Assembly (NCBI RefSeq): GCF_003018255.1
Contig: NZ_CP027440.1
Strand: one strand, 5' to 3'
Origin: Escherichia coli
GTDB lineage: Bacteria > Pseudomonadota > Gammaproteobacteria > Enterobacterales > Enterobacteriaceae
Length of the DNA stretch: 64,000 nucleotides
Under the pieces are notes generated by a model, which did no database searches, was not told the origin of the DNA, and saw nothing but the letters and a program-made list of their open reading frames with translations. The position numbers and the translations under genes were made by a program. Below are positions 55,582 through 60,790 of the stretch, piece by piece (position 1 is the stretch's first letter; every line of letters begins with the position of its first letter).

Positions 55582-55982
55582 AAATGTTCCTCTTCTTATT
55601 GTACTTAATTCCAAAGTAATTTTACGAAGAGAAATAAGTGGATGTAAGTGAAGTTAGTCACATAAAGAGATAGCAGATTAAGCTAAAAAAAGAGAAATAA
55701 CAGTCCATAAACTGTTGACATTACTTTCTATTCTACTAAGTAATTTCTCGCCGATAAACAACTAATCTATTGATATTTAATAAATTATTGTATTTTACTG
55801 ACAAAATTCCGAATTGAGATCATAAATAATCATGCAACAGGTTATGCAAATGCATAAATATGTGATGAATGTCACTTATTTATTTCAATAATATATCGCC
55901 TAAAAACAACGCGGGGCAGGGAATGGCTGCCCCATTTTAATTTCTACGTAACGTGCGTGGTTGACTACTCGTTAGCAAATAA

Positions 55983-56744
55983 TCAAATAGCTAAAGCACT
56001 CATCGTGTTATCCGTGTTCATACCCGTGTGCCTTTGACAACGGTACTCCTTAGAAACTCTCTTCGGACTGTTGCCGAAATGTTTGCGGAACGCATAAATA
56101 AAATAAGATGTACTCGCATAACCACATTGTTCGGCAATTTTATTGACTGAACCTTCTACGCGTATCAAATTTTTTGCGTGCTGCATTCTGGCATCTAAAA
56201 GAATCTGTGAGAATGTCGTTTGCTCTTGCTTTAGTTTTTTCTTCAACAGGCTTTCACTAATGTACAGGCAGTCACAAATATCTTTCAGCTTCCATGGGTG
56301 CGCCAGCTTCATGTTGACAATATTTCTCACTTTCCCGGAAACGGATAGCACACCGTTAGTTAATAGTGTAATGAAACCTTTGCATGTGGCAAAAATAGAC
56401 AGGCAAGAAAAAAGCAAAAGTTCTGAAAAGTTATGATGATTGCGTTCTTCCGAGTTGAGATAAGCAATCATTTCATTAAGCAATCCAGTCGGTACATTTG
56501 AAGCACGTAAAAACTTCGCAGGGACAGGCATCGTCACTGTCTGGATGTTAGTGCATTGTAGATATTTTTTAATGGTGTTTTCATTAAATCCGATTTCTTT
56601 GAAATGCCGCTCATAAGGTTCAAAATGCGTACGAACAGCGTTATCTACCATCAGGATCTCGCCGTCAGAGAAGGCGTAATCTTTATCTGAAATGTTAGCG
56701 TTGAAGGCATGATGAATAAATATAACAGAACAAACGAGCGACAT
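55983..56744 (-). CDS. ydeO: AraC-family acid-resistance regulator YdeO (253 aa)
   Basis: C-terminal AraC-type HTH. Confidence 0.85.
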   Translation of the reverse strand: MSLVCSVIFIHHAFNANISDKDYAFSDGEILMVDNAVRTHFEPYERHFKEIGFNENTIKKYLQCTNIQTVTMPVPAKFLRASNVPTGLLNEMIAYLNSEERNHHNFSELLLFSCLSIFATCKGFITLLTNGVLSVSGKVRNIVNMKLAHPWKLKDICDCLYISESLLKKKLKQEQTTFSQILLDARMQHAKNLIRVEGSVNKIAEQCGYASTSYFIYAFRKHFGNSPKRVSKEYRCQRHTGMNTDNTMSALAI

Positions 56745-56818
56745 TTTATCTCCTTAAAATAATAAAGTTTTTATCGATAATTTTTTAACATTTCATATTT
56801 ATAATTTGCTGTTTATTT

Positions 56819-57016
56819 TCAGTCTTGCAAACTATTGATAATGAAATGTGTAAGATCTCTTGCAATGCGACCCATTTCTGAAATACCCAGCTGATCAATT
56901 GCCGAAAAAATGGCTATCAACGTAAGTGTCAGTAATAAGACAACCACAATTACAGACATGATTTCTTTATAGTTGTCTCTTTGCGTGATTTTGTTTTTCA
57001 CTGTGGTCGCATGCAT
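56819..57016 (-). CDS. safA: small membrane protein SafA, PhoQ activator (65 aa)
   Basis: Single TM segment; immediately upstream of ydeO. Confidence 0.8.
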   Translation of the reverse strand: MHATTVKNKITQRDNYKEIMSVIVVVLLLTLTLIAIFSAIDQLGISEMGRIARDLTHFIINSLQD

Positions 57017-57127
57017 TTCAAATATGTTAATTTAGCGGATAACGTTAAAAATCGTTAATCAGTATGCTTAATATAACAGGCTGGAGAAAAGAGGAAATAG
57101 GACTGGCACTTCAGTACTGAGCGGAGT

Positions 57128-57146
57128 TTCTTACAGCTGTAGGCAG
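57128..57146. promoter_or_regulatory. EvgA-box-like inverted repeat TTCTTACA-GC-TGTAGGCA upstream of safA
   Basis: Close to the EvgA consensus TTCYTACA-N2-TGTARGAA; nearly the same 18-mer recurs upstream of ydeP. Confidence 0.5.
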
Positions 57147-57263
57147 AAGTTTATATCTTATAGGATGTGGTTTAATTTAATCCATGTGAGCAAATTGCGC
57201 GATAATAGTCAATGAGGAATTCTTCTGCTGTGCGGATGACAGCAGAAGAAATGAGAAGAGGCA

Positions 57264-59543
57264 TTAATTTGATGGTTCTAATTCAACCGGAATACTTTTA
57301 TAGCCTGGAATGCCACTTAATGGATCGTGGTTATCAAGTGTTAGCATGTGATTCGATTCTGGAAAATAGGTCACCAGTGAGCGGTCAGCCATAGGGTAAA
57401 TGACCACTTTTAATCTATCCATGCGGCGTGAGCTTCGCTTACCGTCTGGCGTAAGCGCAATAAGATTAACTCTTTCGCCGTTTTTTACACGGCAAATTTT
57501 AGCTTGTTTAGCACTCATAAAGACCACATCTCGTTGACCGAATACCCCTCGATAGCGATCATCCATACCATAAATCGTCGTGTTGTACTGATCGTGACTG
57601 CGTACTGTCGCCATGACTAGCTTACTGTTAAACGCTGAAGAGGGATCTTCTAACAGCCCTTTACTGGTAATGAAATTAGCCTTACCTGACGACGTCCTCC
57701 AGCGCCTTTCAGCAGCTGCGTTTATCAGGTGAAAACCTCCAGGATGTCGGATGCGCTGGTTATAGTCGGCGAACTCTGGCAGTACAGCTTCAATGTCATT
57801 GCGAATGCGATCATAATCTTCCACCAGATACTCCCAGGCTACCACGCTCTGGGGGAGTGCTGCCTGCGCGATTCCCGCAACCACTGCACACTCTGATTTC
57901 AGCATTACACCGGCGGGTTTTAACACGCCACGCGAGGCATGAATCATCGACATTGAATCCTCAACGGTTACCGCCTGCGTACCGCTTTTTTGCATGTCAA
58001 TCTCGCTGCGTCCCAGAACCGGCAGAATATAGCTATGCCGTGCGGTCAGCAGATGAGAGCGGTTAAGCTTAGTGGCAACGTGTACCGCCAGATCTAATTG
58101 CGTTAACGGTACAGCGCTCGCTTCCCGATCTGGCATTGCCAGTGCAAAGTTGCCCCCCATGCAGATCAATGCGCGAGCCTGCCCCGTACATATTGCTTGC
58201 ATGCTGGCAATTGCAGCATGTCCAGGTGCATGAGGTGGGGTGAAACCATAGCGCTCACCCAGGCGAGCCAGAAACTCTGCAGACGGTTTCTCGGTGATAC
58301 CGACGGTTCGGTCGCCCTGTACATTAGAGTGACCTCGTAGTGGGCAGATACCCGCACCAGGCTTACCAATGTTACCTTTCATCAACAGCAGATTGACCAG
58401 TTGCTGTACGTTCTGGGTACCATGTTCGTGCTGAGTGATCCCCATTCCGTAACAGATAATGGTTCGTTCGGCAGCGGCATATGCATCAGCAAGTTCGGCG
58501 ATTTGTGTCTGACTTAGTCCAGAAATACGTTCGATATCTTTCCACTCGGAATTGAGCACGTCACGGCGTAGCTCGTCAAAGCCGATGGTATGCGTTTGAA
58601 TAAATTCGTCATCCAGCAATGAGGGCCGACCTGCGGCGCTTGCAGCATCATCGCGCTCAATTAACAGGCGCATCATCCCCTTGAGCAACGCCATATCACC
58701 ACCAATGCGCACGTTGTAGTAGGCACTGGCCAACTGAGTCTCAGAGTTCGTCAGCATTTCAAACGGGTTTTGCGGTGCGGTAAATCGCTCCAGGCCACGT
58801 TCCTGTAGAGGATTGATGGCGATCATTTTCGCTCCCCGTTTCACTAAAGCGCGCAACGAAGTCAACATGCGAGGGTGGTTTGTACCAGGGTTATGCCCAA
58901 TGCAAATGACTAAATCGCATTTCTCAAAGTCTTCCAGCAACACGGTCCCTTTACCTACACCGATACTCGCTGCCAAACCCACACTGGTCGGTTCATGGCA
59001 CATGTTGGAGCAGTCGGGGAAGTTATTGCTCCCGTATTCACGGGCAAAAAGCTGATAAAGAAAGGCAGCTTCATTGGAAGTGCGGCCCGAAGTATAGAAT
59101 TCAACCTGATTGGGATCACTATAGCTTTGAAGGCGTTCGCCAATTTCGTCGAAAGCTTGTTGCCAGCTTAATGGCTTGTAACAGTCGCTGACGTCATCAT
59201 ATTTCAAAGGCTGAGTGAGACGTCCCGCAGCCTCAAGCTCGTGATCTCCCCAGGTAAGTAATGATTGAACCGTATTCTCAGCAAAGAAAGAGGCATTTAC
59301 CTGCTTATCCGTGACTTCCCAGGCGATTGCTTTTGCGCCGTTTTCACAAATGTCGAATGACGCACTGTGCTTAGGATCTGGCCATGCACATCCCGGACAG
59401 TCAAAGCCCTCTGGCTTATTCATATCAAACATGGCAATAACATCCTGGCGTATATCCATCTGCTTACGTACTGCATTTGCTACGGATTTAACAGCACCCC
59501 AACCACCGGCAGCTCCCTGGTAGGATTCAATTTTTTTCTTCAT
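57264..59543 (-). CDS. ydeP: molybdopterin oxidoreductase-like acid-resistance protein YdeP (759 aa)
   Basis: Formate-dehydrogenase-like fold, full length. Confidence 0.85.
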
Positions 59544-59785
59544 CTGCTTATCCTGTGTGGAAATGAATTATTAGGATTTGTAATAGCGATGATGCACAGT
59601 ATATACAAAGGGATTATCGTCAACATGGATATATAAGAGTAGGGGACTACTCTCTTTCTATTTTAATCTATTATCGTTAAACAAAAGATTAAATACGATA
59701 AATTAAGCATCATCTCTCATAGTGTTTAAATTAACATATTTTTCAATATAAAAAATAAGACTCTGGCGTTAATTGTGCGCGGATT

Positions 59786-59803
59786 TTCTTACAGGTGTAG
59801 GAT
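59786..59803. promoter_or_regulatory. EvgA-box-like inverted repeat TTCTTACA-GG-TGTAGGAT upstream of ydeP
   Basis: Second copy of the motif seen at 57128; flanked by an imperfect inverted repeat AATTGTGCGCGGAT ... ATCCGCGCAATT. Confidence 0.5.
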
Positions 59804-59875
59804 AATAGCCTTCACAAAATAATTATCCGCGCAATTTTCGCGAATGGAGCGCATAGACTAAGGTCAAAATCACAA

Positions 59876-60790
59876 TTATTCATAGATAAAAGTGACACCA
59901 ATGACTGACTGAACTGTTCCGGCTGAAACTTTGTTTCCTGTTTGTCCATAGGTTGCGCTTAAACCCAGAGGTACTTTGCTTTTATTTACTGTCCCCAGGG
60001 AGACGTTTTCTCCCGTAGCCAGTATTTTTCCATTACGCATCAGAGAGACACCCACTCCCGATGCTTTTGTTGCATCTGGTGCTGTGTTAGCAAACACTTG
60101 TCTGGCACTGTCAGTGGTAGCACCCGAAAGATAAAATGAGAGCTTTTGTTCACTTGAGCAATATACGCCAAGGGGTATTTCTGCGCTTCCAAGAAAGTCC
60201 GGGAGATTCACGTTGACATTACGACTATCAACGGTGCAGCCGCCTGTTGGCATAACAACACTGTTATTTGAAATAATATTCCACGTAAAATTACGCGGAT
60301 TTCCGCTTCCTAACGTGGCAATTTTATACATATGAATACGGGCAATAACTTCCCCTGCTTTTATGACAACTCCACCGGCCACTCCGACTGGGGTAATATA
60401 GAGTTTTAACGGTAATGGCATCGGTGTCTTATCACCAATATCCAATACGTTGGTATTTGTCGTCAACGGGAAGGGGTAGGTCACATTATTCCAGTACAGT
60501 GATCCTTTATATGACTGTAGGGAGCCTGCGAAAGCTGATCCTTGTACCAGGTTTATATGATCAGTGTCGTACCAGCCGCCGTAATCATTCCAGCAACTTA
60601 TATGCTGAGACAAGTCTACAACCAGATTCTGGCCCGGTTGTATTACAGGATCGAGATTAACATAAACAGAGGTTGTACCTGCTCCAATACTTGACCCGCC
60701 ATCGACATTACAACTGAAGGCAAAAACTTTGCCTGCCATTAATAGAAGATAAATACCGAACAGGACCTTTATACTGAATGTTTTATCCAT
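59876..60790 (-). CDS. ydeQ: fimbrial adhesin-like protein (304 aa)
   Basis: Signal peptide; FimH-like size; last gene of a chaperone-usher cluster. Confidence 0.75.

Follow-up and report, generated by a model that had tools for sequence, protein, structure and literature searches.

The 18-bp inverted repeats of the safA-ydeO and ydeP promoters of Escherichia coli: very probable EvgA operators

The acid-resistance genes safA, ydeO and ydeP of E. coli lie side by side, and an 18-bp inverted repeat is found upstream of safA-ydeO and again upstream of ydeP. The locus raises the question of which protein, if any, reads these two repeats, and of how much of the DNA around them belongs to the same control element. 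The window referred to below is the whole stretch of E. coli DNA that was analysed, 64,000 nucleotides long. We hold with high confidence that the two 18-mers are operators for the response regulator EvgA at the safA-ydeO and ydeP promoters.

Positions 55900-60000 of the window match the chromosome of E. coli strain 2017.09.02CC with 100% identity, and thousands of further E. coli genomes with about 99%. The annotation beneath the match gives ydeO, safA, ydeP and ydeQ, all four on the minus strand. ydeO (55983-56744) encodes an AraC-family protein with the Pfam domains HTH_AraC and HTH_18; safA (56819-57016) encodes a protein of 65 aa which matches the Pfam family SafA (E = 1e-47); and the product of ydeP (57264-59543) is a putative molybdopterin oxidoreductase (Pfam Molybdopterin). 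ydeQ is found at 59876-60790. A first-pass annotation of this DNA had already named the genes behind the repeats as the acid-resistance genes safA-ydeO and ydeP; the genome annotation and the Pfam matches agree with it. SafA is the connector from EvgS/EvgA to PhoQ/PhoP, and YdeP is required for acid resistance. YdeO is an activator of gadE and of other acid-resistance genes (PMC4222967). An inverted-repeat scan also finds a perfect 12-bp hairpin 3' of the ydeP stop codon (57220-57250, minus strand); it sits between ydeP and the safA-ydeO promoter, and its stem is kept in the divergent Escherichia L002. The evgAS genes are absent from the 64-kb window because they are located elsewhere on the chromosome. 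In a set of 5426 complete E. coli genomes, the evgA region is found in 5398, the safA promoter in 5373 and the ydeP promoter region in 5327.

The box of the safA-ydeO promoter (TTCTTACAGCTGTAGGCA; 57128-57145, minus strand) lies 111 nt upstream of the safA ATG and reads TGCCTACA-gc-TGTAAGAA in gene orientation. The box of the ydeP promoter (TTCTTACAGGTGTAGGAT; 59786-59803, minus strand) lies 242 nt upstream of the ydeP ATG and reads ATCCTACA-cc-TGTAAGAA. The earlier coordinates of the second box stand; those of the first need a small correction, as an end at 57146 is one base too far for a box which spans 57128-57145. Both boxes are intergenic and have the same orientation relative to their minus-strand genes. 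Each is an 8-2-8 palindrome in which the perfect half-site TGTAAGAA is promoter-proximal and an imperfect half-site, xxCCTACA, is distal. Two copies of the core pattern TTCTTACANNTGTAGG, and no more, are present in the 64 kb, against 0.25 expected with up to two mismatches. Each box differs from the full consensus TTCYTACA-N2-TGTARGAA at one position, and the window holds no further site with three or fewer mismatches to it. When the window was shuffled 300 times with its dinucleotides preserved, not one match with a single mismatch or none arose, and matches with up to two mismatches averaged 0.03. The near-identical inverted repeats that had been noticed upstream of safA-ydeO and ydeP are thus both in place, similarly oriented and each one mismatch from the consensus.

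That consensus, which we take to be that of the EvgA box, was checked on 52 kb of K-12 sequence around known targets. Allowing two mismatches, it is found in the emrK-evgA intergenic region and upstream of frc, yfdX, yegR, safA and ydeP, with one additional occurrence inside mdtE. The site upstream of frc is a perfect match, and yfdX has a second, weaker box 38 bp downstream of its first. The six upstream regions with a box are those of operons reported as directly EvgA-induced, and their recovery validates the consensus. The resemblance to the EvgA consensus first suggested for the two 18-mers is borne out by the single mismatch in each copy and by the same palindrome at the other direct EvgA target operons. 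EvgA of K-12 has a Response_reg domain (E = 1.5e-27) and a GerE domain (E = 2.8e-22) in Pfam. Judged by their two-fold symmetry and by this pairing of a receiver with a GerE domain, the boxes have the character of operators of a response regulator of the NarL/FixJ type (GerE/LuxR helix-turn-helix). Some papers call gadE a direct EvgA target, yet no box is found upstream of it at four or fewer mismatches in the K-12 regions scanned.

The box sequences, their significance, their position and orientation, their conservation, the match to other EvgA promoters and the domains of EvgA were computed in this analysis, and EvgA binding, EvgS dependence and the effect of box mutation are taken from the literature. 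The EvgA box of the EvgS/EvgA regulon is said to have been defined by Masuda and Church in 2003 and by Itou and others in 2009. Masuda and Church reportedly described the 18-bp inverted repeat in six upstream regions, obtained gel shifts with EvgA on these repeats, and saw lower expression and lower acid resistance when the repeats of ydeP and b1500-ydeO were mutated; between them, the two studies are understood to cover EvgA binding and box mutagenesis at the two promoters considered here. Direct binding of EvgA to the safA-ydeO promoter is described (PMC9496106, citing Itou 2009), as is its binding to inverted repeats upstream of yfdX and yfdWUVE (PMC3720670, citing Masuda & Church 2003) and to the emrKY promoter (PMC8174306). 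An EvgA site is present at every directly regulated gene (PMC4283999), and EvgA-dependent induction of the target operons is stated in three papers (PMC4283999, PMC8174306, PMC9496106). EvgA goes unmentioned in a ChIP-seq compendium paper.

To follow the conservation of the boxes, the window was aligned with K-12, with a diverse set of seven E. coli and with L002, a divergent Escherichia that has a YdeP of 95% identity; a search of the E. coli collection for more divergent relatives added one intermediate lineage, EC42405. The proximal half-site TGTAAGAA is unchanged at both boxes in 9-10 Escherichia variants. At safA, GCCTACAG-n-TGTAAGAA is invariant in nine Escherichia variants and the distal half-site varies only at its first position ([T/C]GCCTACA); at ydeP, variation in the distal half-site is confined to the second and last positions (A[T/G]CCTAC[A/G]). 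The 2-nt spacer is free to vary among the E. coli lineages and L002, being CC, CT or TC at ydeP and GC or GT at safA. Half-sites which are kept while the spacer drifts form the pattern expected of a dimer operator. No site with three or fewer mismatches is present in the retrieved ydeP-homologue loci of Edwardsiella (84-85% protein identity), Yersinia, Raoultella, Tatumella and many Burkholderiaceae; since these homologues from other genera have no box, only Escherichia sequences are informative for footprinting.

The likeness between the two promoters extends beyond the boxes. In what follows, p denotes the number of nucleotides after the box in gene orientation. Over about 90 nt the safA and ydeP promoters run colinear, and a gap-free alignment downstream of the box has 43 of 70 positions identical; the 5705 background windows give 17.7 ± 3.7 and never more than 33. 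The blocks common to both are AAxTCCGCxCA, yTGAAG, CAGTCyTATTT and TGtTAwwTTAArCA. When the six K-12 EvgA promoters are anchored on their boxes, the best-conserved hexamer is TCYKAT at p26-31, which is present in all six; 5000 random shifts never gave so high a score, whether safA and ydeP were both kept or one of them was left out. In the window this fixed-offset element is TCCTAT after the safA box (57097-57102, minus strand) and TCTTAT after the ydeP box (59755-59760, minus strand), the latter invariant in all Escherichia variants sampled. TCYKAT is similar to the core of the EvgA half-site, TTCYTA, a resemblance which the safA copy also has, and it lies 42 bp further downstream than the corresponding bases of the distal half-site, with no partner half-site of its own.

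Where these elements lie relative to the start of transcription can be estimated from the ydeP leader. A CsrA study used this leader from -178 relative to the ATG (PMC11210196), and in K-12 that position corresponds to p66. Should transcription start there, the -10 element is TAATTT preceded by TG and the box is centred near -74. From this leader position and the colinearity with safA, we infer an extended -10-like element TGtTAATTT for ydeP (59728-59736, minus strand) and a start site near 59720. TCYKAT may be contacted by a further EvgA subunit or by RNA polymerase. The corresponding putative element of the safA-ydeO promoter, TGtTATATT (57070-57078, minus strand; p50-58), has an offset equal to that of ydeP and is conserved in L002; it would place the safA-ydeO start site near 57062-57063. 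TCYKAT would then fall at about -40 to -35, which suggests either an arrangement like that of BvgA or a fixed contact for RNA polymerase. A second assignment competes for ydeP. Consensus scanning picks out a sigma-70-like pair at 59745-59772 (minus strand), TTAACG-16-TATATT here and TTGAAG-16-TATATT in K-12, as a possible alternative to the extended -10 element; the K-12 pair has been listed as a predicted constitutive ydeP promoter with an H-NS mark (PMC3946193).

Other likenesses between the two intergenic regions were considered and set aside. A perfect 15-nt inverted match between 57020-57034 and 59727-59741 is attributed to chance: outside this lineage it is imperfect, with TAAATAAACAT or TTAATAAACAC in other strains. 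Upstream of the safA box, AATTGCGCG occurs a third time (57194-57202); this copy was rejected, as K-12 has AATTGCGAA there. By our own estimate, about 0.5 shared 9-mers of this kind are expected by chance between two intergenic regions of about 250 nt.

The ydeP box is further bracketed by an imperfect inverted repeat, which had been reported together with the box and is indeed present, with 12 pairs and a 2-nt bulge. The proximal arm (AATTGTGCGCGGAT; 59771-59784, unstranded) occupies p2-p15 after the box and reads ATCCGCGCACAATT in gene orientation; the distal arm (ATCCGCGCAATT; 59825-59836, unstranded) reads AATTGCGCGGAT and has a core, CGCGGAT, which is invariant in nine variants. Between the arms is a 40-nt loop which contains the EvgA box. 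This repeat could have a function of its own: a second regulator might use the arms as half-sites and so loop or clamp the EvgA site, or the arms might form a structure in DNA or RNA. Several points favour such a role. Folded as single-stranded DNA the repeat gives z = -4.47, with none of 200 shuffles as good, which places it among the top 1.2% of the 78-nt windows of matched GC content in the 64 kb; some 15 loci in the 64 kb fold as well, and most of these are terminator-type hairpins. The GC-rich cores of both arms are invariant in nine variants despite indels in the surrounding upstream DNA. Across the nine Escherichia variants, 9 of the 12 pairs are invariant, one is compensatory (L002), one is a wobble (L002) and one is broken (EC42405). 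The compensatory case is a change from AATT to AAAT on both arms in L002, by which pairing is retained. L002 also has a 12-nt insertion within the loop; the distance between arm centres is about 53 bp in E. coli and about 65 bp in L002, or roughly five and six helical turns.

Against such a role, the covariation is not significant, as 52 of 500 shuffles do as well. An RNA structure is made less likely by the two imperfect pairs, since the L002 wobble and the EC42405 mismatch point to opposite strands; with 40 nt in the loop a cruciform is disfavoured, and the whole region probably precedes the start site. The block TCCGCxCA, which overlaps the proximal arm, is found at the same offset in safA, where there is no partner arm, and no known motif matches the repeat. 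Each arm has another possible reason for being conserved. The larger secondary structure or second protein-binding site that was first suggested for the two arms is accordingly regarded as possible but unlikely.

The distal arm may also be viewed from the other side, as belonging to an intrinsic terminator for ydeQ, the fimbrial operon upstream, with an incidental complementarity to the proximal arm. A pattern scan does find a local hairpin just after the ydeQ stop codon, ATTCGCG-aaaattg-CGCGGAT followed by AATTATTTTG (59825-59845, minus strand), which overlaps the distal arm; read from 59845 to 59825, its 7-pair stem and the following AATTATTTTG stand about 30 nt past the stop codon. However, the RNA fold of this hairpin is no better than that of shuffles (z = +0.28), and its stem has fewer pairs in K-12 and EC42405 and is missing from L002. 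Neither folding nor conservation supports a terminator here, and the stem is not conserved as that of an intrinsic terminator would be; we think it improbable that the distal arm owes its sequence to one.

Taken with the promoter comparison, these features allow a tentative extension of the EvgA operator reading. It is possible, though we would not favour it strongly, that EvgA promoters consist of more than the 18-bp box. The colinear stretches of about 90 nt at safA and ydeP may act as modules, TCYKAT at the -35 region of all six promoters may be in contact with additional EvgA subunits or with an RNA polymerase that EvgA holds in place, and the clamping repeat of ydeP is a candidate site for a second regulator.

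For the boxes themselves, two further explanations have to be weighed against EvgA. Other regulators that carry the LuxR-type helix-turn-helix also bind short inverted repeats of this kind, the RcsB box TAAGAAT-ATTCTTA being one, and several of these LuxR-type proteins operate in the acid-resistance network. The palindromes might for this reason be bound mainly by another member of the NarL/FixJ family, for example RcsB or GadE; the motif is found, however, at exactly those operons which are reported to be EvgA-induced independently of YdeO, including the evgA promoter region, and assignment to another regulator is very improbable. Least credible is the idea that the 18-mers arose as palindromes by chance, or survive passively from the duplication of a promoter segment and regulate nothing: the colinearity of the two promoters (43 of 70 positions) means that common descent could explain part of the similarity between the boxes, but no shuffle of the window gave as good a match, the same palindrome stands at four otherwise unrelated EvgA-regulated promoters, half-sites are preserved over a drifting spacer, and EvgA binding has been published (PMC9496106, PMC3720670). 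Masuda and Church reportedly also saw induction lost once a box was mutated, which this idea would not predict.

With EvgA as the protein that reads the boxes, the course of events with the best support is the one already published. Mild acid would activate the hybrid kinase EvgS, and EvgS would phosphorylate EvgA. A dimer of phosphorylated EvgA would then occupy TTCYTACA-N2-TGTARGAA, one monomer on each half-site, and from a box centred about 74 bp upstream of the start site it would activate an otherwise weak promoter. Of the products, YdeP would contribute directly to acid resistance, YdeO would switch on gadE and the glutamate decarboxylase system, and SafA would activate PhoQ/PhoP. The connections from EvgS/EvgA to ydeP and safA-ydeO, from YdeO to gadE and from SafA to the PhoQ pathway are described in the literature (PMC4222967, PMC9496106, PMC11210196). 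The two boxes are the entry point of the acid-resistance cascade that passes through EvgS/EvgA, YdeO and GadE, and of the SafA link to PhoQ/PhoP; together, the cascade and the link underlie the survival of E. coli in the acidity of the stomach.

Both boxes are already described regulatory sites, and the observation that they exist is correct but ordinary. Their role has been in the literature since 2003-2009, so their presence in another strain adds nothing new. What this analysis adds is the colinearity of the two promoters over about 90 nt and the presence of TCYKAT at 26-31 nt after the box in six EvgA promoters. If these have not already been described, they would amount to a modest refinement of how EvgA activates transcription.

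The closest homologue of EvgS/EvgA is BvgS/BvgA of Bordetella. BvgA operators have inverted half-sites resembling TTTCCTA, bound by a dimer of the NarL/FixJ type well upstream of the promoter, and weaker sites extend from there towards the -35 element. The EvgA boxes are likewise inverted repeats of TTTCCTA-like half-sites, and the offset of TCYKAT would fit the extended sites of BvgA; the difference is that at EvgA promoters only a lone hexamer resembling a half-site is seen and its partner half-site is absent. The 7-2-7 sites of NarL and the RcsB boxes are also built from two short inverted half-sites with a 2-bp gap, read by a dimer of C-terminal helix-turn-helix domains. The NarL half-site is TACYYMT, whereas that of EvgA is TTCYTACA, and the regulons differ as well. 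The nearest comparison is with the EvgA boxes of K-12, which serve emrKY/evgAS, yfdX, frc (yfdW)-oxc-yfdVE, yegR, safA(b1500)-ydeO and ydeP: the 18-bp repeat is the same, and so are the two promoters. The safA box is identical in K-12 and in this strain, and the ydeP box differs by one base, its distal half-site being ATCCTACA here and AGCCTACA in K-12, so that this strain is one base nearer the consensus. The base at that position is T in seven of the nine other Escherichia sequences compared and G in K-12 and L001. The boxes of the window do not differ in kind from the known EvgA boxes; they are the same sites in another strain of E. coli.

The promoters of safA and ydeP (57045-57145 and 59700-59803, minus strand) are colinear without gaps over about 90 nt, well beyond the 18-bp EvgA box (consensus TTCYTACA-N2-TGTARGAA) which each contains. 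Downstream of the box they are identical at 43 of 70 positions, and an extended -10-like sequence, TGtTAwwTT, lies at the same offset in both. The alignment also includes a hexamer, TCYKAT, which resembles the core of the EvgA half-site; it reads TCCTAT at safA (57097-57102) and TCTTAT at ydeP (59755-59760). In K-12 (loci L051, L053 and L054), this hexamer is found exactly 26-31 nt past the box in all six EvgA-box promoters: safA, ydeP, emrK, frc, the proximal yfdX box and yegR. None of 5000 random shifts gave conservation as good.

Two tandem boxes spaced 38 bp apart precede yfdX in K-12 (L051 16501-16556). The distal box is strong, with one mismatch to the consensus; the proximal box is weak, with three, and has fixed-offset features in common with frc (CTCTCTGATT). 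A further K-12 site, TTCTTACGCATGAAAGAA, is located within the mdtE coding sequence, 5' of mdtF (L052 5887-5904). It has two mismatches to the consensus, and about 0.004 matches of this type are expected by chance per 8 kb. MdtEF is a pump which is induced indirectly by EvgA.

The ydeP box itself varies between strains in its distal, imperfect half: K-12 has AGCCTACA (L054 8731-8748) whereas the window has ATCCTACA (59786-59803). When nine other Escherichia sequences were compared, seven had the window form; K-12 and L001, a metagenome-derived contig, had G. It is thus the laboratory strain which carries the variant more distant from the consensus. L001 (JARKOR010000108.1) is labelled 'Candidatus Nanosynbacter', yet it shares 99% identity with the ydeP-safA locus of E. 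coli and has the boxes too; because of this identity, the label probably reflects bin contamination. Across the loci L003-L006, Edwardsiella species have a YdeP of 84-85% identity, and no EvgA box with three mismatches or fewer occurs in the sequences compared. Among 5426 E. coli genomes, a match of 99% identity or more to window positions 55900-60000 was found in strain 2017.09.02CC alone, and the next best matches are 98.9% identical; the window therefore comes from a somewhat unusual lineage.

Other features of the region lie outside the boxes. A 15-nt stretch of the safA leader (57020-57034) is a perfect inverted match to the ydeP promoter (59727-59741; AAATATGTTAATTTA / TAAATTAACATATTT). 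It is perfect only in the window's lineage, and is thus probably a chance match in AT-rich DNA. The perfect 12-bp hairpin 3' of ydeP (57220-57250) keeps its stem in a divergent Escherichia (L002); its 7-nt loop is nearly the reverse complement (CATCCGC versus ACGGATG), as if it had been inverted.

Induction of DicC, a Qin prophage regulator, raises ydeP expression 20- to 47-fold (PMC11430063). The DicC motif is a short TT(A/C/T)G...C(G/A/T)AA palindrome; the same study is silent on binding of DicC at the ydeP promoter.

Just 3' of the predicted safA start site is the sequence TGATTA-acgat-TTTTAA (57045-57061, minus strand). It is similar to the direct repeat of the PhoP box. A PhoP site at this position would be in keeping with a report that PhoP represses safA (bioRxiv 10.64898/2026.05.06.723403).
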